Assembly: GCA_001189075.1 (NCBI GenBank)
Contig: LFCN01000006.1
Coordinates: 321,746 to 385,745, forward strand
Direction of reading: 5' to 3'
DNA: 64,000 nucleotides
Source: Parcubacteria bacterium C7867-004
GTDB lineage: Bacteria; Patescibacteriota; Minisyncoccia; Phycocordibacterales; Phycocordibacteraceae
Shown here: piece by piece, positions 9,217-55,079 of the stretch
Layout: the number at the start of each line of letters is the position of its first letter
How positions within the stretch are numbered: the stretch's first letter is position 1
Program-made: the position numbers and the translations under genes
Notes under the pieces: model-generated
Database searches by the model: none
What the model was told of the DNA's origin: nothing
The model's input: the letters and a program-made list of their open reading frames with translations, nothing else

Positions 9217-9220
9217 GGAT

Positions 9221-11436
<2,216 letters not shown>

Positions 11437-11501
11437 ATGGCTCACAGAGTAGCATGCGCAGCAGGGTCTCTTCATCAAGTGCGATATACTTACGGTCTTA
11501 T

Positions 11502-13280: not shown

Positions 13281-13281
13281 G

Positions 13282-13312
13282 AAAAGGGCCAGCTTTTAGC
13301 TGGCCCTTTTCT
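13282..13312 (+). terminator. rho-independent terminator
   Basis: AAAAGGGCCAGC-TTTT-AGCTGGCCCTTTTC directly after the ABC transporter stop. Confidence 0.7.
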
Positions 13313-13315
13313 GTA

Positions 13316-13392
13316 TGGTGCGCGCTGAGGAATTCGAATCCCCGACCTTCTCAACGTCAATGAGACGCTCTAACCAACTGAGCTAAGCGCGC
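13316..13392 (-). tRNA. tRNA-Val (anticodon GAC), CCA encoded
   Basis: Reverse complement gives GCGCGCT-TA-GCTC-AGTTGGTTA-GAGC-G-TCTCA-TTGACGT-TGAGA-AGGTC-GGGGA-TTCGAAT-TCCTC-AGCGCGC-A-CCA. Confidence 0.85.
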
Positions 13393-13442
13393 ATACAGGA
13401 ACAGTCGCAGGATAGCGCGTTTGACGGTACCATTCAAGCAAT

Positions 13443-14063
13443 ATGCGGATACGCAGGCTTAGGGATATATCGACTGACGCAGCAGCTCTTGAGGCTGCGG
13501 AAGTGCTGCGCGCGGGTGGCATCGTCCTCTTTCCCACCGATACGCTCTATGGGCTTGCCGTGGACGCACTGAACGAAGAAGCGCTTGCACGGCTGAAGGT
13601 GCTCAAGGGAAGGGAAAAGAAAAAGCCGGTCTCAGTTATCGTCCCGTCGCTTGCTGATATGGAAGAGCACGTCTTGCTTCCTCCCGAAGCCAGGCGTATT
13701 GCGGAGGCGCATCTGCCGGGCGCCCTTACCCTCGTGTTGCCGGCACGCGCGCATGTTCCTGAGAGCGTAACGCTCAACGGTGCGCTCGGAGTGCGTATAC
13801 CTGATGACCCATTCGCGCTCGCGCTCGCCCGCGCGTTCGCGGGACCCTTCACCGCTACCAGCGCGAACAAAGCGGGTCATGTAACGCCCATAAGCGCGAT
13901 GGACGTCATCACTCACTTCGGTCCTGACGCTATCGGCATCGACCTCATCATTGATGACGGAGAGCGGGCGGGTGGAAACCCATCGACAGTAGTGACTTTC
14001 GTCGATGGCGTTCCGTACATCATTCGGGAAGGGGTCCTGTCTCGGGAGACTCTAGGTTTTTAG
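13443..14063 (+). CDS. tsaC: L-threonylcarbamoyladenylate synthase (YrdC/TsaC family)
   Basis: 206 aa. YrdC fold motifs GGIVLFPTDTLYGLAVDA and ATSANKAGH. Confidence 0.75.
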   Translation: MRIRRLRDISTDAAALEAAEVLRAGGIVLFPTDTLYGLAVDALNEEALARLKVLKGREKKKPVSVIVPSLADMEEHVLLPPEARRIAEAHLPGALTLVLPARAHVPESVTLNGALGVRIPDDPFALALARAFAGPFTATSANKAGHVTPISAMDVITHFGPDAIGIDLIIDDGERAGGNPSTVVTFVDGVPYIIREGVLSRETLGF

Positions 14064-14069
14064 TAAACG

Positions 14070-14097
14070 CAAAAAACCGCCCAAAAGCGGTTTTTGC
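14070..14097 (+). terminator. rho-independent terminator
   Basis: AAAAACCGC-CCAAAA-GCGGTTTTT after the tsaC stop. Confidence 0.65.
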
Positions 14098-14102
14098 TCG
14101 TG

Positions 14103-14174
14103 TGATCCCACGGGGAATCGAACCCCGATTTCCTGCGTGAAAGGCGGGCGTCCTAACCGTTAGACGATGGGACC
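14103..14174 (-). tRNA. tRNA-Glu (anticodon TTC)
   Basis: Reverse complement: GGTCCCA-TC-GTCT-AACGGTTA-GGAC-G-CCCGC-CTTTCAC-GCAGG-AAATC-GGGGT-TCGATTC-CCCCG-TGGGATC-A. Confidence 0.8.
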
Positions 14175-14226
14175 TTCGTATAGCATCCTACATTTTTAAG
14201 GCTGGAAATGCTAGGATGGCGGGACT

Positions 14227-14314
14227 GGAGGGGTGCGTGAGTGGTTGAAACGACCGGTTTCGAAAACCGGCATGCCGAAAGGTATCGGGAGTTCGAATCT
14301 CCCCCCCTCCGCCA
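14227..14314 (+). tRNA. tRNA-Ser (anticodon CGA), long variable arm, CCA encoded
   Basis: GGAGGGG-TG-..-CCGGT-TTCGAAA-ACCGG-(long variable arm CATGCCGAAAGGTATC)-GGGAG-TTCGAAT-CTCCC-CCCCTCC-G-CCA. Confidence 0.8.
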
Positions 14315-14330
14315 GAGAATAGGAAGTACA

Positions 14331-14366
14331 AAAGAAAAAGGGCGCACGCGAAGATGCGTGCGCCCT
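14331..14366 (-). terminator. rho-independent terminator for the minus-strand gene ending at 14382
   Basis: GGGCGCACGC-GAAGAT-GCGTGCGCCC hairpin with an A-run on the plus strand (T-run on the minus strand) at 14331-14340. Confidence 0.6.
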
Positions 14367-14381
14367 GATCGTTTATATTGC

Positions 14382-15551
14382 TTAACGAGCATAGAACTCC
14401 TGAACGAAGGAATCGATGGTCTCGGGACCCCGGGTAGCGGGGTACGCGAGTTCACCGAGCACGATAGTCCGCGGCGGACGGTTGTCAGCCATGAACTCGA
14501 CGAATCCCTCGCGGTTAGTAGGCCGAAGCCGGTCACGAATCCACTGGAGCGAGACGCTGCCGTAGTCTATCCCGAACAGGTTACTGCTTTGGGACAGGTA
14601 CGGAACGAGAGGCGAACCGCCCGCAAGCACGAAGACGGCATGCGTCGCCGTTCCTGCAAGGCATCCCGCGCGAAGATCGGGCGGCATGTCTCCGGCGATA
14701 AGGAGATGCTCGATCGTGCCCGAGCCCGCAAGCTTCGCAAGCTCGAACTCGATGAGGTTCTCCTTGGAAGCCTCGGGCGGCATCATGTAGAACTGGAGCC
14801 GGTTATCCGATGGCCGGCTCTCGTCCACGATAAGGATGGAATCCATGATCGGCTTGAACTCTCCTATCAGCTCCTCGCGCTGCGCGTCCGTGATCCTGTC
14901 AGATTCGGACGCCCACCGATAGGAATCTGCCATTTCGCCGATGAACTCCTTTACCGCGCTCATCCGCCTCTTGTTCTCCTCGAGCGATACGATCGGATCG
15001 CAGAATTCGAACTGGAATCGGTAGGGAAGCGGAAAGACATCGGTTTTTCCGTCGCGGTAGTTTTGTTCCGATTCGATCGCCGCCAGGAACGCGGACGGAT
15101 CGTCCTTGCTCGGCAGGTCCGCCAGCGCGAACATCTTGTACGCGGCTTCCCGCCAGCCGAGGTGGCTGCGAAGACTCCCGCTCTCGATGTAGGGTCCGGT
15201 ACGACCGTTCCGTGAGTACGAGCCTGTTCCCATGCTCATGATCACGTCTGGGTCGGTGAAGGACCTCCTGCAGGCGATGGTCTCAGGCGCGATGTAGTTC
15301 CTGCTCCCATCCTCACGCTTCCCGAGCAATGGAACCGGACGGGTGAACCCCGCCGCAACCGATGCTAGGTAGAGCGTCTCCGACATGAGCATTTCCGGCG
15401 TCTGCGCTGTCGCGACCATGAACGTGCCGCGAGCATCAAAGAAGTTCCGAACCCTGTTTGCAGCCCTGATTTCCGAGGGTATCGGATGCGAAGTCATAAG
15501 CGTACCGTCGACGTCGCAGACGGCGACGAATTCCAGGCCTGTGCCTGTCAT
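14382..15551 (-). CDS. HAD-superfamily hydrolase (HAD-IIB-like phosphatase)
   Basis: HAD motif I VAVCDVDGTL near the N-terminus and IAGDMPPDL-type motif IV near the C-terminus. About 390 aa. Start chosen at MTGTGLEFVAVCDVDG. Confidence 0.5.
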   Translation of the reverse strand: MTGTGLEFVAVCDVDGTLMTSHPIPSEIRAANRVRNFFDARGTFMVATAQTPEMLMSETLYLASVAAGFTRPVPLLGKREDGSRNYIAPETIACRRSFTDPDVIMSMGTGSYSRNGRTGPYIESGSLRSHLGWREAAYKMFALADLPSKDDPSAFLAAIESEQNYRDGKTDVFPLPYRFQFEFCDPIVSLEENKRRMSAVKEFIGEMADSYRWASESDRITDAQREELIGEFKPIMDSILIVDESRPSDNRLQFYMMPPEASKENLIEFELAKLAGSGTIEHLLIAGDMPPDLRAGCLAGTATHAVFVLAGGSPLVPYLSQSSNLFGIDYGSVSLQWIRDRLRPTNREGFVEFMADNRPPRTIVLGELAYPATRGPETIDSFVQEFYAR

Positions 15552-34679: not shown

Positions 34680-35096
34680 ATGAGACGAATCCTCTCCTCA
34701 CTGCTACTCGCCTTTCTGTGCTTTGTGAGTATTGTTCCTGCAATTGCGCTCGCGCAGACGGGCGGACAGCCATCGGGAACGGCTCCTACTGGCGGCCAGC
34801 CGTCGGGAACCCCGCCTCCATCGAATGCGGGCTCTGGTCTTGTTAATCCACTCAACAATATCGACTCCCTGCCGGATTTCCTGAACGCGATACTTAATGC
34901 GGTTGTAGACATCGGCAGTATCATCCTGGTCCTCGCGCTGGTCTATACCGGCTTCTTGTTCGTTGCCGCACAGGGAAATCAGGAGAAACTGAGCAGTGCC
35001 CGGAACGCGCTTATATGGACCGTGGTCGGCGGACTCGTTTTGCTCGGCGCTAAGGCGATCGGTCTTGTCATCGAAGCAACCGTTAAGACCTTATGA
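34680..35096 (+). CDS. VirB2/TrbC-like pilin-family small membrane protein (paralog 1)
   Basis: Signal peptide, low-complexity GGQPSGT repeat, then two hydrophobic helices separated by a short polar loop (..LVLALVYTGFLFVAAQGNQEKLSSARNALIWTVVGGLVLL..). Confidence 0.5.
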   Translation: MRRILSSLLLAFLCFVSIVPAIALAQTGGQPSGTAPTGGQPSGTPPPSNAGSGLVNPLNNIDSLPDFLNAILNAVVDIGSIILVLALVYTGFLFVAAQGNQEKLSSARNALIWTVVGGLVLLGAKAIGLVIEATVKTL

Positions 35097-35404
35097 TCAA
35101 GTTCTCTCGGATAGCGTTGCTTGCGGGAACGTTAGTTCTCCTTCCTGAAGTAGCAAGTGCAGCGGAGACTTTTAAGAGTCTTACTGCGAAGATAGTTACC
35201 CTTGTGAACACTGCGGTTGTTCCTCTTATCTACGCCATAGCCATAGTTATCTTCCTCATAGGCATGCTCAGGTTCTTCTTTCTCGGTGGGGAGGAAGGCC
35301 GTGAGAAAGGGAAACAGTTCATGCTCTGGGGCATCATCGCGCTTGTGGTGATGTTCTCGGTCTGGGGCATAGTCAGGCTTCTGCTCACTGCTCTTCCGGG
35401 GTAG
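35093..35404 (+). CDS. VirB2/TrbC-like pilin-family small membrane protein (paralog 2)
   Basis: Signal peptide plus PLIYAIAIVIFLIGMLRFFFLGGEEGREKGKQFMLWGIIALVVMFSVWG. ATGA start/stop overlap with paralog 1. Confidence 0.55.
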   Translation: MIKFSRIALLAGTLVLLPEVASAAETFKSLTAKIVTLVNTAVVPLIYAIAIVIFLIGMLRFFFLGGEEGREKGKQFMLWGIIALVVMFSVWGIVRLLLTALPG

Positions 35405-35453
35405 GTGCATAACATTCCGTCAAACTCATTCCGCCTGCTACCTTTATACATAT

Positions 35454-35867
35454 ATGAAAACATCACGATTTCTGGTTTCCGCGAGTGCGCTCGCTCTCGC
35501 GCTTAGTGCTCCGATTATAGCGTTCGCGCAGAGCGGCAAGATAGGAGGCTCGAGGCTCGATACGTTCCTTCCGAGTATCGTCGATTTCATAAACTCGATA
35601 CTCATACCGTTCATCTTCGCAATCGCTTTCATCGTATTCATCTGGGGTATCTTCCAGTATTTCATCGCGGGTGGCGCGAATGAGGAACAGCGCGACAAGG
35701 GGAAGCAGCTGGCGGTCTGGGGCATCATCGCATTCTTCGTAATGATCTCCGTCTGGGGCATGATCAACTTGTTGGTCGATACCTTCGGTTTCGGTGGACA
35801 GAATGCGCCGAAGCTTCCGACTTTCAAGCCAGCCGCGATGCTCTCAGTGCCGCTTGATGCTGCGTAG
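35454..35867 (+). CDS. VirB2/TrbC-like pilin-family small membrane protein (paralog 3)
   Basis: Signal peptide plus IPFIFAIAFIVFIWGIFQYFIAGGANEEQRDKGKQLAVWGIIAFFVMISVWG. Confidence 0.55.
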   Translation: MKTSRFLVSASALALALSAPIIAFAQSGKIGGSRLDTFLPSIVDFINSILIPFIFAIAFIVFIWGIFQYFIAGGANEEQRDKGKQLAVWGIIAFFVMISVWGMINLLVDTFGFGGQNAPKLPTFKPAAMLSVPLDAA

Positions 35868-35961
35868 CGTTTTCCCCACGCGTCCTCAGGCTCTATTGAC
35901 GTTCACTCATTCCAGTCTATCCTTAGCTTTAGTAGCGAATCGTTACCACTAACCACCCATC

Positions 35962-36327
35962 ATGAAGAAACTCGGATATCTCGTTCTCGCGTTCGTTCTC
36001 TCGTTCCCGGTCTCGGCATTCGCCCAGATTAATGCGACCAATGCTCAGACGTTCAGCAACGGCGCAATCAACCTCATCAACAACGTATTTATCCCGCTCG
36101 TCTTCGCAATCGCTTTCATCGTATTCATCTGGGGAGTATTCCAGTACTTCATCGCTGGCGGACACGACGAGGAGAAGCGCGAGACCGGAAAGAGCCTCAT
36201 GCTCTGGGGCATCATTGGATTCTTCATTATGGTCTCCGTCTGGGGCCTCGTGAACATCCTCCGCGGAACCATTCAGGTTAACAACAGCGTTCCGGACTAC
36301 GCTCCGAACCTCCCAACAAACCAGTAG
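35962..36327 (+). CDS. VirB2/TrbC-like pilin-family small membrane protein (paralog 4)
   Basis: Signal peptide plus IPLVFAIAFIVFIWGVFQYFIAGGHDEEKRETGKSLMLWGIIGFFIMVSVWG. Shares a 34-nt identical stretch with paralog 3. Confidence 0.55.
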   Translation: MKKLGYLVLAFVLSFPVSAFAQINATNAQTFSNGAINLINNVFIPLVFAIAFIVFIWGVFQYFIAGGHDEEKRETGKSLMLWGIIGFFIMVSVWGLVNILRGTIQVNNSVPDYAPNLPTNQ

Positions 36328-36393
36328 GAACTATCCGAGTTTCTCCACTCACGAAGGCCGCGCGCAAGCGCGGCCTTCTGCTATCATTACCGC

Positions 36394-36636
36394 ATGGAAT
36401 ATAAGGAGTTTGTAACTAAAGTGCAGGACGCGATTCTCACACCCATCATCACGCTCCTCGCGCTCGCGGCATTCGTGCTCTTCATCTGGGGAGTCGTGCA
36501 GATGCTCGCGTCCGCAGAAGACCAGGAGAAGCGCCGTACGGGTCAGCAGCACATGATCTGGGGCATCATTGGACTGGTTATCATCTTCGGTACCAACGCG
36601 ATTATCTCGCTCATACGAGCGACGGTGGGTGGGTAG
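36394..36636 (+). CDS. VirB2/TrbC-like pilin-family small membrane protein (paralog 5, no signal peptide)
   Basis: 80 aa. LLALAAFVLFIWGVVQMLASAEDQEKRRTGQQHMIWGIIGLVIIFG. Confidence 0.5.
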   Translation: MEYKEFVTKVQDAILTPIITLLALAAFVLFIWGVVQMLASAEDQEKRRTGQQHMIWGIIGLVIIFGTNAIISLIRATVGG

Positions 36637-36695: not shown

Positions 36696-37226
36696 TTACC
36701 CGAGACTCGCGTACTTGACCGGGACTTCTTCGTCCGGCTGGCGCAGGCGATACTCGTACTTCATCCGGATCGGAGTGCCCGTACTGGACTGCACCGCGAC
36801 GCCGAAGTTGTACTTGCAGATCTGGGGATCCCAGGGGATCTTCTTGCCCCCTCCGATCTCGCAGAACCTCCGGTAGGTGATCTCGGTGTCACCCTTGCAG
36901 ATGTTGCCGGGACCGACCTCGCAGAAGACCAAATCGTAGCCCTGCTCGGTCGGGACGTAGGCTGACGTGGTATCTCCAGCCGGAGCCAGGATATCTTGCC
37001 AGCCCCGCGCGAGAGGCGCCTGAGGCCGAATGGCCGCCACGCTCGGGAGCGAATAGCGAGCCTTCTGCAGCTCGGCCATGGTGGCTTTCGACTTCTGCTT
37101 CGAGTCGTGCTCGACGAACATCATCTTGAACTTCGGGATGCCGAAGGCCAGGGTGAGGAGGATGCCGATGGTAACGAGAAGCCTGCCGCGTTTCTTGGTC
37201 GGGGTCGATGTGGTAGTGCTCATCAC
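36696..37226 (-). CDS. membrane-anchored Cys-rich secreted protein, function unknown
   Basis: 176 aa. N-terminal TM anchor, then a domain with several Cys (FCEVGPGNICKGD..FCEIGGGKKIPWDPQICKYNFG). Confidence 0.45.
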   Translation of the reverse strand: MMSTTTSTPTKKRGRLLVTIGILLTLAFGIPKFKMMFVEHDSKQKSKATMAELQKARYSLPSVAAIRPQAPLARGWQDILAPAGDTTSAYVPTEQGYDLVFCEVGPGNICKGDTEITYRRFCEIGGGKKIPWDPQICKYNFGVAVQSSTGTPIRMKYEYRLRQPDEEVPVKYASLG

Positions 37227-38125
37227 GAACCTCCTTTCTTAGCGCCGAATACTTCGACGATGCCTTGCTTGATCGTATCGGCGATGCCTTGCGCACCCTC
37301 GAGACGGATAATATGACGGGTTGCGGTTGCTTTGCCGCGCTCCGTCTGCATGGTCTCCAGGGCCAGCTCAGGCTTCACGCCTTTTGCGCCCAAGTCGTCA
37401 ATCCATGCGATCACCCCCTTGCGTTCCACGCCTTCTGAGACGAGTTGCGCTTCCTCGATCCGCTTGTGAGCGGCCGCCGCGGGAATTTCCGGCGGCGGAA
37501 GGATTTCAGGGATCTCCACCTTGATGACCTCATACCCCAGAAGGGCAGAGGAATCTCCCATCGCGGTCTTGATATCGGCCGCGAGGGTGCTCCACGTTGC
37601 CGGCCTTTCAAGCACCTCAGATTCCTTGCCGGCAATGCCGTCGCGGAACCGGCTTTCGCCGATCTTCATGAGGGACGTGAGTGGGGCGTCAGCGCTGAGA
37701 TTGGTGTGCGGATCAATGACCTTCAGCGTGGCGAAGAAGGAGCCCGTCATCTCGACGTTGTCCGTGGACAACGCTTTGACGTTCTCCGGTGCAGTGGTCT
37801 TGATGCGAACATCCACCGGGTCGAAGCTCATCAGGAAGGGAATCAGCCAGTGATGACCTTCTGACAGCACGAAGCCGGCAATCCGCTCGCCCAGGAATTT
37901 GGGAACTCCGACGAAGCCAACCGCGATTGCGGAGTGCTGTCTGCCGGATTGGAAGATTGCGCCGCCGGCGAGTAGAGTCGGCAGGATGCCGAGGAACCAC
38001 CAGTCCGAGGACAAGCCGGTAATCATCAGCACGATGATCGTGATGACGACACCAGTAATGAGCCCCAGAAAGGCAGATATAATCGCGCCGAAGGCGTTTG
38101 TCGTCAGAGTGTTAACCTTGCGCAT
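37223..38125 (-). CDS. SPFH/band-7 domain membrane protein (stomatin/HflC-like)
   Basis: Two N-terminal TM helices followed by a ~200-aa domain with SPFH-like composition and a C-terminal coiled-coil-like tail. Assignment is by architecture. Confidence 0.45.
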   Translation of the reverse strand: MRKVNTLTTNAFGAIISAFLGLITGVVITIIVLMITGLSSDWWFLGILPTLLAGGAIFQSGRQHSAIAVGFVGVPKFLGERIAGFVLSEGHHWLIPFLMSFDPVDVRIKTTAPENVKALSTDNVEMTGSFFATLKVIDPHTNLSADAPLTSLMKIGESRFRDGIAGKESEVLERPATWSTLAADIKTAMGDSSALLGYEVIKVEIPEILPPPEIPAAAAHKRIEEAQLVSEGVERKGVIAWIDDLGAKGVKPELALETMQTERGKATATRHIIRLEGAQGIADTIKQGIVEVFGAKKGGS

Positions 38126-38479: not shown

Positions 38480-38512
38480 AAGAAAGCGCAGGCTCTGGCC
38501 TGCGCTTTCTCT
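38480..38512. terminator. bidirectional rho-independent terminator
   Basis: AAAGCGCAGG-CTCTG-GCCTGCGCTTT between tRNA-Lys (+) and alr (-). Confidence 0.65.
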
Positions 38513-39653
38513 ATTCCACGACACGCCTGAGGTGCTCGGCGATATGGACGGTTATGACGTACGGGGAGGTCTCGTCCAGCTTCGCGATCTCGGCGATCGA
38601 GTTCGGTTTCTCAGGATCTCGCCCGATAATCACAACCGTATCGCCTCGCTTGGCGTCGGGGATGTCAGTCACGTCTATGGAGGTCATATTCATGGATACG
38701 CGTCCCGCTATAGGAGCCTCCTTGCCATTAACCATGAATGACCCTCGGTTCGAGAGCCCGCGATCGACCCCTTCGAAGTAACCCACGGGAACGGTAGCAA
38801 TACGTGACGCGCGCTTGGCACGGAAGGTGGTGTTGTACCCGACCGCGTCGCCTTCGGGTATCTCGCGAATAGAGGTTATGAGGGCGCGCATCTCAAGCAC
38901 GGGCAGGAGCGTAACTTCGTCGACCGGAGACATATCGTATCCGAAGAGTCCCATGCCGATGCGCGCAGTGTTCATGCAGGAGGAGTCGCTGAACCGTATG
39001 CCCTTGGTTGCGGCAAGATGCCGGTATTCGATTGTACGGAATGCCGCGTCCAGCATTGCGAGCATCTTCTTCCATGACGCTATCTGCTGATTGCTGAACG
39101 AAGGATCTACGTTATCAGCATCAGCAAAGTGCGAACAGACACCAACGACACGCAGGTGCGTATTGGCCTCCAGAAGGGCTATAGCTTCTTCAAGATCAGT
39201 TGGAAGGATGCCATGTCGATGCATCCCGGTGTCGAGCTTTATATGCAGGCGTACGCTCTTGTCTGCGAGCCGGCTGAGTTCCCTCAGCTGCTCTATGTCC
39301 GTAATGGCGTAGTCGACGTTCCGGATGCTGCTGTCCGCGATGTATTCCGGTCGCACGTACCCCATAACGGTTATACGTGACCTGATACCGCTCCTACGGA
39401 GCTTCTCAGCCTCGTAGAGGGAATCAACCGCGAAGAATGCGATATCTTCCGTATCAAGGATCTCGGCAACGGGTATGAGTCCGTGCCCGTACGCATTGCT
39501 CTTCAGTACGGGAGCGATTCTGATATCCGGATAGCGTTCCTGGTATGCATGGAGGTTATGCAGCAGGTTCTTTTTTGAAATGGATACCGTGATGAGCGGC
39601 TCGTGGTAGGCGAGCGTCTTTCGTATCCCTTTGATGATGTGTCGAATATTCAT
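38511..39653 (-). CDS. alr: alanine racemase
   Basis: PLP-binding motif PVLKSNAYGHG near the N-terminus. Two-domain size of about 380 aa. Start chosen at MNIRHIIKG to avoid overlap with tRNA-Leu. Confidence 0.75.
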   Translation of the reverse strand: MNIRHIIKGIRKTLAYHEPLITVSISKKNLLHNLHAYQERYPDIRIAPVLKSNAYGHGLIPVAEILDTEDIAFFAVDSLYEAEKLRRSGIRSRITVMGYVRPEYIADSSIRNVDYAITDIEQLRELSRLADKSVRLHIKLDTGMHRHGILPTDLEEAIALLEANTHLRVVGVCSHFADADNVDPSFSNQQIASWKKMLAMLDAAFRTIEYRHLAATKGIRFSDSSCMNTARIGMGLFGYDMSPVDEVTLLPVLEMRALITSIREIPEGDAVGYNTTFRAKRASRIATVPVGYFEGVDRGLSNRGSFMVNGKEAPIAGRVSMNMTSIDVTDIPDAKRGDTVVIIGRDPEKPNSIAEIAKLDETSPYVITVHIAEHLRRVVE

Positions 39654-39658
39654 GTTGG

Positions 39659-39745
39659 TACCGGGAGTGGGACTTGAACCCACATGAGCCGTTAGGCTCA
39701 CGACGTTTTAAGCGTCGCGTGTATAACCAATTCCACCATCCCGGC
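39659..39745 (-). tRNA. tRNA-Leu (anticodon TAA), long variable arm
   Basis: Reverse complement: GCCGGGA-TG-..-CGACG-CTTAAAA-CGTCG-(variable arm TGAGCCTAACGGCTCAT)-GTGGG-TTCAAGT-CCCAC-TCCCGGT-A. Confidence 0.75.
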
Positions 39746-40226
39746 GCTTCAGTCGAATGTTACTGCCTCTATGCGTTAGTTTCAAACTATGACAATTAGG
39801 GCAAAGAATACGAAGGTTCTCTAATCTATTGTCCGTATTGTCTCCATTTATGTGGTCCAGCTCAATTGGAAGTCTCCCGTCAATACTTTTTTCTGCCCAT
39901 CCACATTCCTCACACTCAGGTTTCTTTAATCCAGCATTAAATAATCGCCTTTTAAGATTCCGCCTCGATCTTCGGCTTCCTGCGATAAAGAGCTCCTCAA
40001 GCGAGTATATCGGTTGCCTAGGAATGCTTATGCCTTTATGCCAAGCCTGACCTTTGAAATGAGATGTATCGATCTGGAATTTGCGAATATAGAAATAGTA
40101 TTGAGCATAATTCCCTCCTGCGGGAACTAAACCCAATTTAGAGATCACTTCTCGAACAGTTATTGACTCAAGCACCGCTTTTCGGATATTAGATTCTTCC
40201 CATCGTCCAGGAATACGAGCGGTCAT
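39708..40226 (-). CDS. HNH homing-endonuclease-like protein
   Basis: C-terminal HNH motif LDHINGDNTDNRLENLRILCPNCHS with Zn-ribbon Cys pair PECEECGW. N-terminal helix-turn-helix-like segment. Region is about 40% GC. 3' end overlaps the tRNA-Leu(TAA) 5' end by about 38 nt. Confidence 0.7.
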   Translation of the reverse strand: MTARIPGRWEESNIRKAVLESITVREVISKLGLVPAGGNYAQYYFYIRKFQIDTSHFKGQAWHKGISIPRQPIYSLEELFIAGSRRSRRNLKRRLFNAGLKKPECEECGWAEKSIDGRLPIELDHINGDNTDNRLENLRILCPNCHSLKLTHRGSNIRLKRRDGGIGYTRDA

Positions 40227-47241: not shown

Positions 47242-48888
47242 ATGCGTTCACTAAACATTCATCCGAAGCTCCTTCCGACTCTCATCGTCCTCCTTGCCGT
47301 CTTTGTGGGCGTAGGAATCTACTTCTACACCAACCCCGAGACCTTCAAGGAACGCCTGGCCGATTCGCTCTCGACGGATACCGGACTTCCGTTTGATATC
47401 GATCTTGCGAAAGATTCTCTCACGGACGAGGAGAGTCAGGCGATGTGGGAAGCGCGCAACAAGCTCGCCGATTCGCTCGAGGGATATCCAATAGAAGCGA
47501 ATTTCCTTCCGGATCCGGTCCTTGTCCCACACCCTCAGGGCCAGGACTATCTCACACTCTACAAGATAGGAACGATAACGAACGGAGAACTGAAAGGCGA
47601 AACGTTGTATCTCGAATCGGAAGACGGTATGGGTGGTGCGTACTATAGCCGCGCAATTGTCAGGGACGGGAATGTCATCACGCTCCGGGAAAACCAATTC
47701 ACGTTCCCCTATGAGTACGACTTCCCGGAAATCATAAGCATACCCGGCACGCAGCATACGCTGAAGAAAGGAAGCACTGGCTGGTTCCTGTTCGATGAGA
47801 AGACGAAGTTACAATCGGTGTTTACGGATCCTCAGGCGCAGACGCTCTATCGTGCGGACTATGGCCAATGCCTCATCGCCGAGATGCCGGATCATATTGG
47901 CGTCTCCTACGACCTCGATATTCCGTTCGTGACAGAAGAGAGCGGAAAACTATCAGTGCGGCTTCCGAGCGGCTCCTTCTTCGAGGATGAATATGACTTC
48001 TTCAACTTCGGTTGTGGTGCCGGCTGCAGGCTCCTCCGATACGTCGATCCGGTCGAACTTGATCTTCCTGCGCGTCTTGCGCAGGTTGCTACCGATCCGA
48101 AGACGAACGAAGCGGTGTATGGCATCGCATCCAGCGAGGACCGTCGTCTCAAGGAATTGTATGCGGACGAGAACACGCTCGCGTATTTCCGTGAGGATGA
48201 TAACTGGGAGCATACGCCGACCAATAAATACACCTATCAGGAATTCCTCTCGCATAAGCCGCTCCTGTATTGGAAAGACCCGTGGGGAAAATGGATTGAA
48301 TTCCAAAATAAGCGATTCGCGACTGCGGCGGAGAAGTGTAAGCCTGTTATCTATCTGTATCCGCGTACCCCGGGAACGTTCCATGTGGAGGTAGCGCCGA
48401 ACGGTGGATTCACGAAGACCATTCCGGAATACGGCGACGGATGGGATGTGTTCGCACAACCCTCGGGATTGATCACTGATATCGCGAGCGGTCTTACGTA
48501 TCCGTACCTGTACTGGTCTGGCATCGGCATCAATTATCCTGAGATAACGGAAGGCTGGATCGTCCCCAAGGAGGGTGTCGATTCCTTCCTCTCGGAGAAG
48601 CTGTATGCGCTCGGTCTTGAAGGGAAGGAGATCGCGGATTTCAAGGAATACTGGGTACCGCGCCTCTCTGAGAAGCCGTACTACAAGATCTCGTTCATGG
48701 CCCCTCGTACCTTCGAGCAGCTCGCGCCTCTGAGCGTGGCGCCGATAGCGCCCGATACGAAGATTCGCGTGATGATGACCGCGCAGGCTACCGACGGCAC
48801 TGAATCCTTGCCAGTTCAGCATTTGCCGCAGCGCCCAGTACGCAACGGCTTCGTACTCGTCGAGTGGGGCGGCGCGGTGCTGTACTAG
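47242..48888 (+). CDS. membrane-anchored extracytoplasmic protein, function unknown
   Basis: 548 aa. N-terminal TM anchor (LLPTLIVLLAVFVGVGIYFY). Large Tyr/Trp/Asp-rich domain with no recognised motif. Confidence 0.5.
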   Translation: MRSLNIHPKLLPTLIVLLAVFVGVGIYFYTNPETFKERLADSLSTDTGLPFDIDLAKDSLTDEESQAMWEARNKLADSLEGYPIEANFLPDPVLVPHPQGQDYLTLYKIGTITNGELKGETLYLESEDGMGGAYYSRAIVRDGNVITLRENQFTFPYEYDFPEIISIPGTQHTLKKGSTGWFLFDEKTKLQSVFTDPQAQTLYRADYGQCLIAEMPDHIGVSYDLDIPFVTEESGKLSVRLPSGSFFEDEYDFFNFGCGAGCRLLRYVDPVELDLPARLAQVATDPKTNEAVYGIASSEDRRLKELYADENTLAYFREDDNWEHTPTNKYTYQEFLSHKPLLYWKDPWGKWIEFQNKRFATAAEKCKPVIYLYPRTPGTFHVEVAPNGGFTKTIPEYGDGWDVFAQPSGLITDIASGLTYPYLYWSGIGINYPEITEGWIVPKEGVDSFLSEKLYALGLEGKEIADFKEYWVPRLSEKPYYKISFMAPRTFEQLAPLSVAPIAPDTKIRVMMTAQATDGTESLPVQHLPQRPVRNGFVLVEWGGAVLY

Positions 48889-48889
48889 C

Positions 48890-50650
48890 ATGCGCAAAGC
48901 GCTGTTGCTCGTCGCTATAGTCGGCTTATGCGTCGCAGCGGTGCTTGCGGTACACCTTTTCAAAAAGGATTTGCAGACCGTCTACGAGGGGACGCATTAT
49001 GCTTCCCACATGCAGGAGCACTTCTATGGGGATATGGCTTCCGCAGATACGGTATTCACGCCTGGTATCAAGGGCGCCATCGTTTCGCACCATCTCCTCG
49101 TTGCGGATCATATAGCGCAAACGTTCGCGTCGATGACCAACGATCAGGTTAAGACGGTGGTTATCATCGGACCGGATCATTTCTCCCGTGCCTCGGGAAA
49201 AGTATCAGTATCGCGGTATCCGTACGAGACACCATGGGGCAGGGTTGAGCCTGATACGGAAGTGATCGATGGCCTCATTAGCGCGAGGCTCGCCGAGGAG
49301 AACGAATATGTCTTCGAGATAGAGCACTCGATCGGCAGTCTCGCTCCGTATGTCAGGTATCATTTCCCGAACGCGAGACTGGTACCGATCGTTGTCGATC
49401 GCTCTACGTCACCTGAGGACGCAGTAAAGCTGGGAACATATCTAGCAGCTAATCTTGATGAGGGTGCGCTCGTTATCGCAAGCGTTGATTTCTCCCATCA
49501 CCTCGGGACCACGGCCGCCGATTTCCATGACGCGAAGAGTGTTGAGACCGTTCGTGCGTTCGACTTCGCATCGCTCGCGCGGCTTGAGGTGGATAGTCCA
49601 GCGTCCCTATACGCAGTCCTTACGTATCTTGAAGCGAAAGGCGCACAACGCCCCGTTATGTTCGATACGACGAACTCTGCGCGTTTCCTCGGCATTCCGG
49701 ATTCTGATGATGTAACGTCGTACCTCTTCGCTACGTTCGCTGAGGGACCAAAGGAGTCGACGGGCGCGGTTAGCATGTTTGCAGCAGGGGACCTGATGCT
49801 CGGAAGGGATGTCGCGAAGAAGATGGCGCAAGGAACCGACCTGTTCGAACGGTTCCGGGGAGTCGAAGGGAATTTCCTTCGCGGATTCGATATGTTCATT
49901 GCGAATCTCGAAGGGCCGATTACCAATTCGACTGAGTGCCAAAAGAAAGAACTCTCATTCTCCTTCAATCCTTCGGTTACTCCATACCTGAAAAAGAACG
50001 GGCTTACGCATGTAACGCTCGCTAATAATCATTCGAATGATTGTTTCGCAGCCGGTATCTCTGATACCAAGCAGAACCTCACGGAACAGGGCATTCGGTA
50101 TGTGGGTGGCGGAACGCTCGCTGAAAGTACCCGGACGGAAAAGGTCGCCGGGAAGCGAATCGCCATACTCGGCATTGATCGGACCGTCCAGCCGGTTGCT
50201 CCTGGGCTCGTGTATGCACATCTGCGCTCACTTGAAGAGAGTCATGACTATACGATCGTGGAGGTGCACTGGGGGCTCGAATACGAGCTCACCGAGTCGA
50301 CGGATCAGCGTACGCTCGCGCACGGCATGATAGACAGCGGGGCGGACGTCATCATCGGCCACCATCCGCATGTCGTGCAGCCGGTAGAGTCGTATGCAGG
50401 GAAGCCGATATTCTATTCCCTGGGAAATTTCGTATTTGATCAGTTCGGGAAAGAGACCAATACCGGCATGGCGGTCGGTCTGGTGCTCGCTGATGCGGCG
50501 ATAAGCACGTACCTGTTCCCGTACACGATAAACAGTGCGCATCAGCCGGACTTGATGGAGTACAAGGAAGCACAGGCGTATTGCAGCACTCAGGATATTC
50601 GTATCGAACCGTTCGGAAAGGATGCGTGCGCACTGCGCCTCGCTCGTTAA
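48890..50650 (+). CDS. fusion protein: Memo1/AmmeMemoRadiSam-B-like domain + CapA (PGA_cap) metallophosphatase-like domain
   Basis: N-terminal TM anchor. Residues about 60-270 contain GAIVSHHLLVADH..VVIIGPDHF (Memo-family His cluster). Residues about 290-586 contain MFAAGDLMLGRDVA..THVTLANNHSNDC..IIGHHPHV, typical of the CapA/PGA_cap family. Confidence 0.55.
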   Translation: MRKALLLVAIVGLCVAAVLAVHLFKKDLQTVYEGTHYASHMQEHFYGDMASADTVFTPGIKGAIVSHHLLVADHIAQTFASMTNDQVKTVVIIGPDHFSRASGKVSVSRYPYETPWGRVEPDTEVIDGLISARLAEENEYVFEIEHSIGSLAPYVRYHFPNARLVPIVVDRSTSPEDAVKLGTYLAANLDEGALVIASVDFSHHLGTTAADFHDAKSVETVRAFDFASLARLEVDSPASLYAVLTYLEAKGAQRPVMFDTTNSARFLGIPDSDDVTSYLFATFAEGPKESTGAVSMFAAGDLMLGRDVAKKMAQGTDLFERFRGVEGNFLRGFDMFIANLEGPITNSTECQKKELSFSFNPSVTPYLKKNGLTHVTLANNHSNDCFAAGISDTKQNLTEQGIRYVGGGTLAESTRTEKVAGKRIAILGIDRTVQPVAPGLVYAHLRSLEESHDYTIVEVHWGLEYELTESTDQRTLAHGMIDSGADVIIGHHPHVVQPVESYAGKPIFYSLGNFVFDQFGKETNTGMAVGLVLADAAISTYLFPYTINSAHQPDLMEYKEAQAYCSTQDIRIEPFGKDACALRLAR

Positions 50651-50702: not shown

Positions 50703-50944
50703 CCGGCGCGCTTACGAACATGTTGGCCGAGGCCGACTCGTTCGCAAGCACCATAGGATACTACAGGAGAGTGATTTTCTCGTCAAGGGATTTTAGGGAG
50801 GAAATGAGGAGGGTGTGGATAACGTGTCGTTCATACTGGGACACTTCAGTTTTATGATTCGTGTGTTATAGTGTAGTGGGGACCGACGCTAACGCATCGG
50901 TAGCCTAATTGTTGAAACTCGCGACCTCAAAGGGGTTTTATTGG

Positions 50945-51682
50945 ATGATACGAACAAGATTGGTGGGCTGCTTCGGCGCGGCCATGGTTCTCGCGCTTGC
51001 GGCGAATGCCCGGGCGGCGACGAACCTCATCGTGAACGGGGGCTTCGAAGCTCCGCTCGCGGGCAACGGCGCCTACTATCAGGCGTTCGGCGGCCAGGAC
51101 ATAGGTGGCTGGACGGTTACTGGGCGGGACATCCTCCTGCTCGACCGCAACTACACGGAGACCGGCCTGGTCTTCAATTCAGCTGCGGGCGATCAGGCGG
51201 CTGACATTACCGGCGCCGGCAACACCAGCGAAGAGGACGGGCTCGAGCAGACGGTGCTCGTCGACCCCGGTCAGCTGTATAGGCTGTCCTTCGACGTCGG
51301 GAACGCGGCGCCGTTCGGCGTGAATTCGTGGGCCTACACGCTCCCGAGCACGGTCCGACTCACCTTCGATGATGGCGATCCTGGGCCGGTGGTGTTCCTC
51401 ACCACCGGCCCGCTCGAGTTCACCAATGCCATCGACAACCCGTCGGGCAGTCCGGGGATCAACTTCCAGAGGTTCTCGGTCGACTATCTCGGCACGAGCA
51501 CCGGTCAGGTGAAGATCCGGTTCTTCAACGGCGTGGGCAACGACAACTACGTCGGCCTCGACAACGTCGTGTTCGAGAAGGTCGCTGCGGCGGTGCCGGA
51601 ACCCTCGTCGTGGGCGCTGATGATCATCGGCTTCGGCGGAATGGGCGCCATGATTCGGCGTCGCCGACTGCAAGCGGCCTAG
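50945..51682 (+). CDS. PEP-CTERM sorting-domain protein
   Basis: Signal peptide (LVGCFGAAMVLALAANARA). N-terminal NGGFE..GW beta-sandwich-like domain. C-terminal VPEPSSWALMIIGFGGMGAMIRRRR is a textbook PEP-CTERM motif (VPEP, hydrophobic helix, basic tail). Lies in an approximately 66% GC island. Confidence 0.6.
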   Translation: MIRTRLVGCFGAAMVLALAANARAATNLIVNGGFEAPLAGNGAYYQAFGGQDIGGWTVTGRDILLLDRNYTETGLVFNSAAGDQAADITGAGNTSEEDGLEQTVLVDPGQLYRLSFDVGNAAPFGVNSWAYTLPSTVRLTFDDGDPGPVVFLTTGPLEFTNAIDNPSGSPGINFQRFSVDYLGTSTGQVKIRFFNGVGNDNYVGLDNVVFEKVAAAVPEPSSWALMIIGFGGMGAMIRRRRLQAA

Positions 51683-52319: not shown

Positions 52320-52354
52320 TCAAAAAGCCGCTTTGTAGCGGCTTTTTGATTTTG
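52320..52354. terminator. bidirectional rho-independent terminator
   Basis: AAAAAGCCGC-TTTGTA-GCGGCTTTTT flanked by A- and T-runs. Confidence 0.7.
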
Positions 52355-52425
52355 CGGGCCCACTAGGAATCGAACCTAGGACGTCGGGTTTGGAATCCGA
52401 AGTTATACCATTTAACTACAGGCCC
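52355..52425 (-). tRNA. tRNA-Trp (anticodon CCA)
   Basis: Reverse complement: GGGCCTG-TA-GTTA-AATGGTA-TAAC-T-TCGGA-TTCCAAA-CCCGA-CGTC-CTAGG-TTCGATT-CCTAG-TGGGCCC-G. One A-C mismatch at the base of the anticodon stem. G73 discriminator is typical of Trp. Confidence 0.65.
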
Positions 52426-52532: not shown

Positions 52533-53564
52533 ATGTATCGGCTTTGGGTCACCGCAGTCTTTGCGTGCGTAATCGCATTGTCCGTACCTGCATACGTATC
52601 TGCCGCTGATCTTCCGCTTCTTACACCCGGTTGGCACATCGTTCCGGATGCGCATGACCTTGATTCGAGTTGCCCGGTAGGTGCACCGCTCGGGTTTGGC
52701 GGCGTACTCCAACTCATCCAGAACCTGATGAATGCCGGTATCTCTATCGGCATCGTCATATCCATCCTGGTTATCGTCTTCTCTGGTTTGCTGTGGATGC
52801 TCACGCCGTTCAATCCCGAGAATCATTCGCAGGCGAAGAAAGTCCTTACGAATGCGGTCATAGGCCTGCTCATTATCCTTTCGGCGTGGCTCATCGTGGA
52901 TTTCGTGATGAAGGTCTTGTATTCGGGTACCGGAGCCGATTCGGGAAAGTTCGGACCATGGAATAAGATACTCGTCGGCGGGAACAAATGCGTAACGGCA
53001 AGCACTGACCTTAAGCCGCTTTTCAGCGGAGACCTATTTACGATCCCAAGCACTGGACCGGCTAACGTTCCTGTGGACGCGACTCAGATAGCAACCGCGC
53101 GAGTAGGTACGGGAGGATGTTCGCCCGAATATATCACCACCATGGCAGGAAAGTCAGGCTCGCCCATAACCCCCTCGAACGCCGCGACGCTTTCTTGCAT
53201 CGCGGTCCATGAGAGTACGTGCGGTACGAGGCTCCTCAATTACAACTGGGGAAAGGGATCAAGTGCGGCAGGACTTCTGCAGGTAACCATCGACAGCCAT
53301 TCTTCCTTCTTTGAGAACGCCACCTGCAGGGCTGCCGCTGGGGTAAGTCCGACGACGGTCCTTAACTGCACGGCAGGATTCAATAAGGGAAATGCGGTTC
53401 CCGGAAGCGCTATAGCAGAGCGCTGCACAAGAGCCGCGAAGGATCCGGCATGCAATGTCGCGCTGGCGCTGCAGGTTCTCAAGTCGGAGGGGTATGGAGC
53501 ATGGACCCATGACCCGAAAAGCAATAAGCAGGAGGCGTGCATCGCCCGCTTCGGGAATGGGTAG
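52533..53564 (+). CDS. VirB2/TrbC-like pilin-type N-terminal module fused to a lytic transglycosylase (SLT-like) domain
   Basis: Signal peptide. Double-TM pilin-like segment GFGGVLQLIQNLMNAGISIGIVISILVIVFSGLLWMLTPFNPENHSQAKKVLTNAVIGLLIILSAWLIVDFVMK. C-terminal domain has the SLT hallmarks AVHESTCG (catalytic E-S) and SSAAGLLQV (GLMQ-like). Confidence 0.55.
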   Translation: MYRLWVTAVFACVIALSVPAYVSAADLPLLTPGWHIVPDAHDLDSSCPVGAPLGFGGVLQLIQNLMNAGISIGIVISILVIVFSGLLWMLTPFNPENHSQAKKVLTNAVIGLLIILSAWLIVDFVMKVLYSGTGADSGKFGPWNKILVGGNKCVTASTDLKPLFSGDLFTIPSTGPANVPVDATQIATARVGTGGCSPEYITTMAGKSGSPITPSNAATLSCIAVHESTCGTRLLNYNWGKGSSAAGLLQVTIDSHSSFFENATCRAAAGVSPTTVLNCTAGFNKGNAVPGSAIAERCTRAAKDPACNVALALQVLKSEGYGAWTHDPKSNKQEACIARFGNG

Positions 53565-53583
53565 CCATGTATACTTATCTGCA

Positions 53584-54144
53584 ATGAAACGCTATCTCCT
53601 CATCGGTCTCGGGGTCCTCATCGTGATCTCTGTAGCGGTTACTGTTGCGTTCATAGTCCTATCGAAGAAAGAGACGCCTCCGCCTCCCCAAGCCCCTGCT
53701 TTGTTCCCTAGCGCTGGCGGAGTCAGCCAGATACGTCCTTCTGACATGGTCCTCTTGGTAGCATCAAAGGCTGGGGGAGATATCGCCGTCCGTGACTTCA
53801 TCAGCGACGATACAACCTTCAACGACCCGTCGAATCCGGATGTCTATTTCATCGCGAGGAGCAGCATCGAATGCTATCCGGACTGCGGTCCGGGAGCGAG
53901 CCAGAGCGCCTTCAACATTTCGTATTTCAAACCGACGAGATCATTCACGATAGCTATCCTCGAGGAACCGATCGGACAATCGAGAATCGATGCGGAGAAC
54001 TATCTTATGAACGTGCTTGGCATTACATCAACTCAGATGTGCGAACTGGATCAGTACACCAGCACTGACACGCAGACGAATCCGGCATTCGCTGGCATTC
54101 CTCTCGGATTTAGCTTCTGTCCAGGCGCGATTAAACTACCCTAA
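53584..54144 (+). CDS. membrane-anchored extracytoplasmic protein, function unknown
   Basis: N-terminal TM anchor (LLIGLGVLIVISVAVTVAFIVL), a Pro-rich linker, and a ~150-aa domain with four Cys. Sandwiched between the two pilin-hydrolase fusion genes. Confidence 0.45.
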   Translation: MKRYLLIGLGVLIVISVAVTVAFIVLSKKETPPPPQAPALFPSAGGVSQIRPSDMVLLVASKAGGDIAVRDFISDDTTFNDPSNPDVYFIARSSIECYPDCGPGASQSAFNISYFKPTRSFTIAILEEPIGQSRIDAENYLMNVLGITSTQMCELDQYTSTDTQTNPAFAGIPLGFSFCPGAIKLP

Positions 54145-54146
54145 GC

Positions 54147-55079
54147 ATGCGTATCCTCTCTCTATTCGTTCCGGTGCTGAGCGCGATAGCATTCGTGCCA
54201 GCGACGGCGTTTGCGGCGAATGCTACGTTCTTCGGGCCGCTCGTTCCTGAGGCGTGCAGGTCTTGTCCGTGCGGGTTCGCGGGTGTCCTGCAGATCATCC
54301 AGAACTTCATGAACCTGGGAATCTCGCTCTCGATCATCATTGCGACGATCATCATCGCGGCAGGCGGGTTCATGTACATCCTGTCCTCAACCAATCCGGA
54401 GAGCCGCAGCAAGGCGAACAAGATGCTTATGAATGCGGTCATCGGTCTGCTTATCGTCCTTTCCGCGTGGCTCATCGTGGACTTCGTCATGAAGAGTCTG
54501 TATGGCGGGCAGTTCGGTCCTTGGAACTCTATCCTTCGAGGCGGAGACGAGTGCGTAGTCTCACGGCCGACCCAAAGGCTTTTCAGCGGGGATCTCTTCG
54601 TGCTGCCCGGCGGGATTACGGGCGGCGGCGTGGAGCAAGGTACGGGAAACGGAACCGGTCCGAACTGCCCGGTTCCAGCTGAATCAACTATGGTAGCGTT
54701 CCCGGCCGAGGCGGTTGCCGGCGGGTCCGGAAAAGCGACCCCTGACACCGTCGCAAATTTCATGGCGATGCGCGAGGCTGCAAAGAAGGATGGAATCGTT
54801 CTGAAAGTAAGCAGTGCCTATCGATCGGATGCAGCTCAAGTGTCGCTCTGGAATAGTCTCGGCAGAGACACGAGCAAGGTCGCGAAGCCCTGCTCGCTGG
54901 GCGGCGGCGGCTCCAATCACAACTCCGGCGCAGCGGTAGATATAGAGGTCGGATGCGGCAATCCGAGCAGCAATTGCAATACGGCCACCTATAAGTGGCT
55001 TAAGGCCAACGGTGGCAAGTGGAATTTCCGAAACGCTCTTCCTACCGATCCTCCGCATTGGTCGCCGAGCGGTACCTAG
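54147..55079 (+). CDS. VirB2/TrbC-like pilin-type N-terminal module fused to an M15 (VanY/D-Ala-D-Ala carboxypeptidase-like) peptidase domain
   Basis: Signal peptide. Pilin-like segment GFAGVLQIIQNFMNLGISLSIIIATIIIAAGGFMYILSSTNPESRSKANKMLMNAVIGLLIVLSAWLIVDFVMK. C-terminal LAS-metallopeptidase hallmarks SAYRS, SNHNSGAAVDI (H..D) and DPPHWS. Confidence 0.55.
   Translation: MRILSLFVPVLSAIAFVPATAFAANATFFGPLVPEACRSCPCGFAGVLQIIQNFMNLGISLSIIIATIIIAAGGFMYILSSTNPESRSKANKMLMNAVIGLLIVLSAWLIVDFVMKSLYGGQFGPWNSILRGGDECVVSRPTQRLFSGDLFVLPGGITGGGVEQGTGNGTGPNCPVPAESTMVAFPAEAVAGGSGKATPDTVANFMAMREAAKKDGIVLKVSSAYRSDAAQVSLWNSLGRDTSKVAKPCSLGGGGSNHNSGAAVDIEVGCGNPSSNCNTATYKWLKANGGKWNFRNALPTDPPHWSPSGT

Follow-up and report, generated by a model that had tools for sequence, protein, structure and literature searches.

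A syntenic three-gene cassette of Paceibacteria joins VirB2-type pilin modules to two predicted peptidoglycan hydrolases

The DNA considered here is a window of 64,000 nucleotides (the whole stretch that was analysed, from whose first letter positions are counted) from Parcubacteria bacterium C7867-004, contig LFCN01000006.1, positions 321,746 to 385,745 of the forward strand. The genome (GCA_001189075.1) of this ultrasmall bacterium belongs to the class Paceibacteria and comprises 778,726 bp with 852 coding sequences (CDS). Three genes of the window, called A, B and C here, follow one another on the plus strand. Gene A (52533..53564) encodes 343 amino acids (aa), with a pilin-type N-terminal module (N-module) and a predicted C-terminal domain of the lysozyme superfamily. 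Gene B (53584..54144) encodes 186 aa, in which an N-terminal transmembrane (TM) helix is joined by ~30 unstructured aa to an alpha/beta ectodomain. Gene C (54147..55079) encodes 310 aa and combines a second pilin-type N-module with a predicted M15/VanY zinc peptidase of the LAS type. A gap of 19 nt separates A from B and one of 2 nt separates B from C. On the 5' side, the three genes border on an oppositely oriented tRNA-Trp gene (52354-52425), and the 3' end of gene C overlaps the convergent miaA by 4 nt. A consensus promoter and terminator scan of the operon gave nothing above background. The operon call, made already in an earlier annotation that used only the letters and their open reading frames (the sequence-only reading), therefore rests on the spacing and the conserved gene order, and both of these agree with it.

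The layout of the two enzyme-bearing proteins is alike. In A, a signal peptide (aa 1-24) is followed by a conserved pre-TM segment with Cys47, a VirB2-type two-helix hairpin (aa 55-129; 52695..52919, plus strand), a flexible Gly/Thr/Pro linker (aa 130-195) and the lysozyme-superfamily domain (aa 196-343; 53118..53561, plus strand). In C, the order is a signal peptide (aa 1-23), a Cys-rich pre-TM segment, a VirB2-type hairpin (aa 44-118; 54276-54500), a linker (aa 119-190) and the M15/VanY LAS zinc peptidase domain (aa 191-310; 54717-55076). In GenBank, gene A (P0001) is annotated from Met66 as a protein of 278 aa, so that 52533-52727, with the signal peptide and the conserved region ahead of the first TM helix, is left out. 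As most of the 189 homologs found for gene A are of ~320-360 aa and cover its full length, the longer start at 52533 is the correct one. For gene B, the ATG at 53584 gives a product that matches the database protein P0239 with 100% identity and coverage. Gene C is identical to the NCBI protein P0121 of the same bacterium. The name given to that entry, ‘Penicillin-resistant DD-carboxypeptidase’, amounts to a guess about its specificity.

The N-modules of A and C are closely related to each other. By BLASTP, they are 58% identical over 121 aa (E = 1e-39), and the aligned stretch takes in both hydrophobic helices with their short connecting loop (NPE..S.A.K) and the post-membrane linker FGPWN.IL.GG..C...LFSGDLF. 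Hydropathy analysis gives each protein a signal-peptide-like N-terminus, with predicted cleavage, and two further hydrophobic segments (A: 4-22, 72-90 and 108-126; C: 3-21, 61-79 and 97-115). Both proteins exceed the Pfam gathering cut-off of the T4SS_pilin family PF18895 (26.6 bits), A with 37.0 bits (aa 60-125) and C with 34.6 bits; both are below the cut-off of NCBIfam NF045849. The sequence-only reading had seen the same signal peptide and double-TM, VirB2-like segment at the start of the genes at 52533 and 54147, and the family assignment bears this out. On these matches, the N-module of A and C is a VirB2/TrbC-type (PF18895) pilin domain.

In the AlphaFold2 model of A (mean predicted local distance difference test, pLDDT, 83), two helices span residues 55-90 and 95-129, the linker is of low confidence and the C-terminal domain is modelled at more than 90. 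After cleavage of the signal peptide, both termini of A and C would be extracytoplasmic, and the catalytic domain would be held out on a flexible linker of ~60-70 residues. The hairpin is the best-conserved part of the A family, with a mean pairwise identity of 64.5% as against 35.9% for the catalytic domain, and G111, W119 and D123 within its second TM helix (TM2) are invariant in 62 homologs. Such conservation argues that the N-module is no ordinary signal anchor.

A and C share with the VirB2/TrbC pilins and with the PF18895 arrays of Patescibacteria the Pfam family, the signal peptide with a two-helix hairpin, and the polar loop NPE..K. Those pilins, however, are small, stand-alone proteins (mature length ~70-120 aa), whereas A (343 aa) and C (310 aa) continue for 180-215 residues of linker and enzyme after the hairpin. 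A further difference from canonical pilins is that the hairpin of A and C is flanked, on each extracellular side, by additional conserved segments with Cys.

An array of such stand-alone pilin-like genes is present in the same window at 34680..36636 on the plus strand. Its five members (34680-35096, 35093-35404, 35454-35867, 35962-36327 and 36394-36636) are all above the Pfam cut-off for PF18895, with 33-49 bits. In HHalign comparisons, the N-modules of A and C align with the five paralogs at a probability of 98% (E = 3e-13 and 4e-14, respectively) over 71-73 columns, that is, over the whole hairpin. The identity of the array members to A is only 13-25%, so the link which the sequence-only reading had drawn to this array stands at the level of the family but not as close paralogy. 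No type IV secretion system (T4SS) machine gene is present beside the array; its flanks are a solute-binding protein gene upstream and an SPFH gene. Directly downstream, on the minus strand (36696-38125), are encoded a 176-aa TM-anchored, Cys-containing protein without a Pfam match and an SPFH/Band 7 protein.

The C-terminal domain of A retains the residues of a lysozyme-like enzyme. Among 62 homologs, E227 (the Glu of HES; codon at 53211-53213) and G247 are invariant, and at least 90% of them share S228 and Q250. Five Cys of the domain are also invariant, which fits an extracytoplasmic location. It was described in the sequence-only reading as an SLT-type domain. The lysozyme fold, the intact catalytic Glu and the quoted motifs were recovered, but membership of the SLT family was not: Pfam gave no match to SLT (PF01464), and SLT_3 (PF18896) reached 17.5 bits, below its cut-off of 27. 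Weak SLT or SLT_3 matches were found in some sister-subtype homologs, and a literature search on PF18896/SLT_3 gave nothing relevant. The top fold match of the domain is C-type lysozyme, the family profile aligning E227 with Glu35 at a marginal E of ~2e-3. In the profile alignment, the second catalytic Asp of that enzyme (‘STDYG’) is replaced by Ala in A (‘SSAAG’), and the two carboxylates of the GH22 family (Glu35 and Asp52/53) are thus not both present. Of the features of SLT/GH23, A has the lysozyme-like fold and the single Glu of an E-S motif with a G-L-x-Q-type motif. In view of the Pfam results and of the top fold match, A was set aside as a demonstrable SLT; it is predicted to be a single-Glu, lysozyme-fold cutter of the glycan strand.

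In C, VanY (PF02557) is matched at 53.5 bits (cut-off 25 bits) over aa 199-298. R226 (54822-54824), H258 (54918-54920), D265 (54939-54941) and H304 (55056-55058) show no variation among 62 homologs, at least 90% of which also have D301; this is the LAS pattern SxHxxGxAxD ... DxxH. The M15/VanY LAS domain proposed in the sequence-only reading is thereby confirmed, its H-D-H triad being intact. Neither of the outcomes that would have overturned that reading, a loss of the catalytic residues of A or C or N-modules unrelated to the array, was seen. Among proteins in the PDB, the relatives of the domain are Ply500 (2vo9; best single-sequence match, E = 2e-6), LdcB/YodJ (4ox3) and VanY-type enzymes. 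The Arg of YRS and the SxHxxGxAxD zinc motif align with Ply500 and LdcB, and the alignments end before DxxH. The C-terminal DxxH with H304 is presumably the remaining part of the LAS zinc motif, as read from the motif itself. C is thus a predicted stem-peptide cutter (M15/LAS zinc peptidase), closest to a phage L-Ala-D-Glu peptidase and to LdcB. Ply500 and LdcB/YodJ, which also belong to family M15, are its best solved relatives; they differ from it in being soluble or secreted and in having no pilin module.

Each element of the sequence-only reading was found at the coordinates that it gave. The protein encoded between A and C had been described as TM-anchored with four Cys, and this holds: B has one TM segment, at the N-terminus, and Cys at 97, 101, 153 and 179. 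C153 and C179 are invariant in its family, and most members also have C97 and C101. An exhaustive profile search recovered 1,914 clusters at E <= 1e-3, of which 1,070 reach E <= 1e-10. Even the homolog ranked 150th has a pilin-lysozyme gene on one side and a pilin-VanY gene on the other, in a locus that adjoins miaA. By its profile matches, B is a member of a large uncharacterised family and no orphan. It follows A directly in every cassette. A recognisable inhibitor fold was not found in B.

Homolog look-ups, together with a scan of the GTDB species representatives with the N-module profile, yielded 24 non-redundant A-B-C triads. Wherever the flanks were examined, the triad lies between ClpB and miaA-Prx-ParB-RelA-TopA, and this includes the divergent versions labelled Kaiserbacteria. 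The same chromosomal position across 24 genomes argues for vertical inheritance, and the cassette is, as judged by gene order, a core locus of Paceibacteria and not a mobile element or a prophage. Gene 1 carries a lysozyme-like domain in all triads, in two subtypes. Gene 3 behaves differently. Its N-module is kept, with 60-70% identity to that of C, while its C-terminal domain varies among at least six classes: VanY (7), c5 (4), c4 (4), c3 (4), c6 (3-4), c7 (1) and two unassigned. The retention of this identity despite replacement of the C-terminal domain, along with the stronger constraint on the hairpin than on the catalytic domain, argues for a specific role of the hairpin. Both the spread of the cassette through the lineage and the swapping of the catalytic domain of its third gene go beyond the sequence-only reading.

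Pairwise HHalign comparison detected no similarity between the gene-3 classes. Class c7 matches a phage endolysin PHROG (E = 3e-12), and classes c3-c6 received no significant assignment by Pfam, PDB profile searches or pairwise HHalign. Motif guesses made for c3-c6 (a LAS-like H..D..H; an NlpC/P60-like Cys..His) were not borne out by the profile searches. The identified gene-3 domains are therefore only VanY, a peptidase, and c7, of a phage endolysin family. Together with the constancy of gene 1 and of the chromosomal position, this suggests that a pairing of a glycosidase with a peptidase may be the selected unit.

As C and class c7 match phage endolysin PHROGs, and as, among solved structures, C is closest to the endolysin of a Listeria phage (Ply500), the cassette might be viewed as the remnant of a phage lysis cassette, in which a holin-like membrane segment became fused to endolysins. 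This origin is very improbable. There are no phage genes nearby, the N-module is a PF18895 pilin domain with a predicted cleavable signal peptide and not a holin, and the family is large and conserved. Moreover, the same housekeeping synteny is found in 24 genomes, and it was on synteny that a phage origin was rejected.

Another feature of the relatives is a fourth gene. Directly 3' of gene 3, a TM protein of ~140 aa is encoded in 4/4 class-c6 loci (L001:12492-12926, L005:7105-7527, L021:8811-9242 and L034:934-1356) and in 0/~20 others, a co-occurrence for which our own Fisher-type count over the 24 loci gives ~1e-4. Such a pattern has the signature of a cognate partner, and the protein is a candidate immunity or regulator partner of class c6. 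In some relatives (L006:2657-3172(-) and L007:2709-3242(-)), the interval from the cassette to miaA holds an oppositely oriented gene for a TM protein of 171-177 aa, which is absent in the window. This minus-strand gene was considered as a class-specific immunity gene and rejected, since its homologous copies (E = 1e-13) accompany two different gene-3 classes.

It may be asked whether the cassette is a weapon directed at a host. According to this proposal, the hairpin lets A and C join or ride a VirB2-type filament or reach the T4SS, the hydrolases face outward and digest the wall of the host bacterium from which the epibiont lives, and B, together with the class-specific fourth gene, provides immunity. 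The layout is indeed like that of polymorphic toxins. Among the 24 syntenic cassettes, gene 3 has at least six unrelated C-terminal classes, the fourth gene is confined to c6, B always lies directly 3' of A, and phage endolysin families are matched by both C and c7. F-type pilins expose their two termini on the exterior of the filament, which would allow a cargo at the C-terminus to be displayed. For the T4SS of the Candidate Phyla Radiation (CPR), delivery of effectors to hosts has been proposed (PMC11665869). The likeness to Tae/Tge effectors of the type VI secretion system (T6SS) and to X-T4SS effectors lies in the conserved N-terminal module, the swapped C-terminal domains and the downstream partner of class c6. 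The cassette differs from these effector-immunity systems in having no recognised linkage to a delivery system, and most of its classes, including the VanY version of the window, are without a partner. No immunity-like gene follows the VanY gene of the window or the genes of classes c3-c5. Polymorphic toxin and effector loci are variable and island-like, whereas this locus is fixed and single-copy, strictly vertical in its housekeeping position and unlinked to T4SS genes. A cargo of ~200 aa on each subunit would also impede the packing of a filament, and no such filament is on the experimental record. Taken together, we regard a host-directed weapon as possible but rather unlikely.

The reading that we favour, tentatively and at somewhat less than an even chance, is that A, B and C form a membrane-tethered, extracytoplasmic peptidoglycan-cutting pair with its partner, serving a T4SS or pilin system. 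A would cut the glycan strand and C the stem peptide, and the two would act jointly to open the wall locally. The pilin-type hairpin would be more than an anchor, bringing A and C to where the PF18895 pilins of the T4SS of Patescibacteria are pooled or assembled. The pair would thereby do the job that VirB1, PrgK and TraG hydrolases perform in other T4SSs, and A would have in B a partner or regulator that is anchored in the membrane. The cassette may, in short, be the missing wall-opener of the T4SS in these bacteria.

The connection to a T4SS is drawn from three observations: the PF18895 family itself, the presence of VirB4 in this genome along with the frequent lack of VirB1 in VirB2-bearing Patescibacteria, and a precedent in a relative. 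GCA_001189075.1 is listed as VirB4-positive (Table S1, PMC12102498), and in the same survey most VirB2-bearing Patescibacteria are without a recognisable VirB1 (PMC12102498). The precedent comes from Southlakia epibionticum, the one relative that has been tested genetically, in which SEML1_0006 and SEML1_0007 directly adjoin VirB4 (SEML1_0008) and all three genes are essential (PMC10633639 supplement). SEML1_0006 has two lysozyme-like domains and a Cys proteinase domain, and SEML1_0007 a Hedgehog/DD-peptidase fold that is M15B-like (PMC10633639 supplement). Compared by domain description, this is likewise a Patescibacterial pair of a lysozyme-fold protein and a LAS-fold peptidase, and one that is needed for epibiotic growth. 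It differs in that its proteins are larger (643 and 1,113 aa), are not reported with PF18895 modules and are encoded in a T4SS operon.

Outside the phylum, a similar task is known from Gram-positive bacteria. PrgK of pCF10, TraG of pIP501 and the CD419 family are membrane-anchored, extracytoplasmic wall hydrolases of the VirB1 type (PMC12102498). What they have in common with A and C is a glycan-cleaving lysozyme- or SLT-type domain and a peptide-cleaving domain that open the wall for a secretion machine, an activity that is only predicted here. In those systems, however, a single polypeptide carries both domains behind a plain N-terminal TM anchor and is encoded inside the T4SS operon; here, there are two proteins on VirB2-type hairpins, with a third protein between them, far from virB4. 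The peptidases also differ, being CHAP or M23 in those enzymes and M15/LAS in C. PrgK, TraG and CD419 and, within the phylum, the SEML1_0006/0007 pair are the nearest functional analogues. The location within a T4SS that marks the VirB1, PrgK and TraG genes is not shared by the cassette, and the functional analogy is drawn from the precedent in Southlakia. The individual domains are already known, and what sets the cassette apart from known systems is its architecture. Databases already label these proteins ‘pilin’ or ‘D-alanyl-D-alanine carboxypeptidase family protein’, and the literature found makes no mention of pilin-hydrolase fusions.

Several observations weigh against a wall-opener of the T4SS. 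The large open reading frames (ORFs) scanned in the 64-kb window are housekeeping genes (e.g., a ValRS-type synthetase, TsaD, FtsZ/FtsA, GyrA and IF-2, as well as ClpB, TopA, RelA, ParB and DprA) or are without a Pfam match, and none of them is a VirB4/VirB6-type machine gene. Across the window and ~25 loci, neither VirB4, VirB6 nor any other T4SS gene adjoins the cassette, whose neighbours are ClpB, miaA, peroxiredoxin, ParB and RelA. The sequence-only reading had compared the hydrolases with the VirB1/PrgK openers of conjugation systems, and this part of it did not survive as stated: with the cassette among housekeeping genes and never beside VirB4 in the window and 24 genomes, the link to conjugation is indirect. 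The literature found has no CPR bacterium in which a pilus of PF18895 proteins was observed. The swapping of gene 3 and its class-specific partner gene resemble the evolution of effectors and immunity proteins more than that of a housekeeping assembly factor. Finally, in other CPR genomes, the PF18895 hairpin heads giant Ig-repeat surface proteins of 630-900 aa and 1,840-2,520 aa (loci L030, L031, L035, L036, L038, L039, L041-L045 and L047, e.g., L036:5152-7845 and 7860-14393), from which it follows that the module may be a general export or anchor module and not specific to the T4SS.

These giants are full of Big_5, TIG and fn3 repeats, and two of their genes often lie side by side, immediately adjoining relA. 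Some of the genomes that carry them are mislabelled ‘uncultured Gammaproteobacteria’.

The giants bear on two further proposals. In one, A and C are ordinary housekeeping autolysins that remodel the wall in growth and division, and the PF18895 hairpin is the surface-protein anchor of the lineage, with no tie to a T4SS or pilus. Its use as the anchor of unrelated large surface proteins agrees with this, and so does the core-genome, syntenic site among genes of translation, replication and segregation in every genome examined. In a genome as small as this one, dedicated accessory systems would be costly. Regulators of autolysins, such as IseA, exist, and a dedicated partner gene in one class is compatible with an autolytic role. 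A passive anchor, however, is not expected to be the best-conserved part of a protein, with invariant residues in TM2, and it is rare for a housekeeping enzyme to be exchanged in place for six unrelated domains within a set of close relatives. The essential, T4SS-linked lysozyme and DD-peptidase genes of Southlakia also point to a role in secretion. The autolysin explanation thus appears doubtful, if by no means negligible.

The adhesin-like giants are, at the same time, a point for the weapon, as the same module carries them. From this, an extended proposal of ‘modular VirB2 pilins’ can be formulated, in which the hairpin would be a general loading module that puts cargo on a T4SS-dependent filament or surface structure in order to breach and hold the host. 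The cargo would be the lysozyme, the interchangeable peptidases and, elsewhere, Ig-repeat adhesins of 2,000 residues, and B and the fourth gene would serve self-protection. Taken as a whole, this proposal is improbable, though well short of fanciful.

Some features of the surroundings may be mentioned. Just 5' of the cassette, at 50909-51682, is the gene of a secreted protein with a PEP-CTERM tail, which has an HpiC1-like/DUF642/CBM domain and PF07589. PEP-CTERM sorting is usually tied to the exosortase systems of diderm bacteria. It is preceded by a gene for a 586-aa membrane-anchored fusion of Memo-like and PGA_cap (capsule synthesis/metallophosphatase-type) domains (48890-50650), and that gene by a 548-aa ORF without a Pfam match (47242-48888). 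The interval between ClpB and the cassette differs among relatives. Further upstream, an HNH endonuclease gene (39708-40226, minus strand) adjoins the alanine racemase gene (38511-39701) in the interval between alr and IF-2. In the relatives L001, L003 and L004, this interval has RbfA and no gene with an HNH match, and the HNH gene may be a selfish insertion.

For the biology of these bacteria, the setting is as follows. The single Patescibacterium that is amenable to genetics cannot do without its T4SS and pilin arrays, their function has been called completely unknown, and most genomes seem to be without VirB1 (PMC11665869; PMC12102498). The cassette is a widespread and concrete candidate for the wall-opener, and the published survey would have counted its proteins as ‘pilins’. 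It offers three testable proteins: a predicted glycan cutter, a predicted peptide cutter and a partner from a family of ~1,900 sequence clusters. In CPR bacteria, the VirB2-type hairpin appears to serve as the N-terminal module of large extracellular cargo, a use that is not reported in the literature found. The in-situ swapping of the peptidase domain is a natural experiment on whether the target is the bacterium's own wall or that of the host. If the proposal of modular pilins were true, it would be a previously unknown weaponising of the conjugative pilus, and it would give a concrete function to the essential and unexplained T4SS of the CPR.

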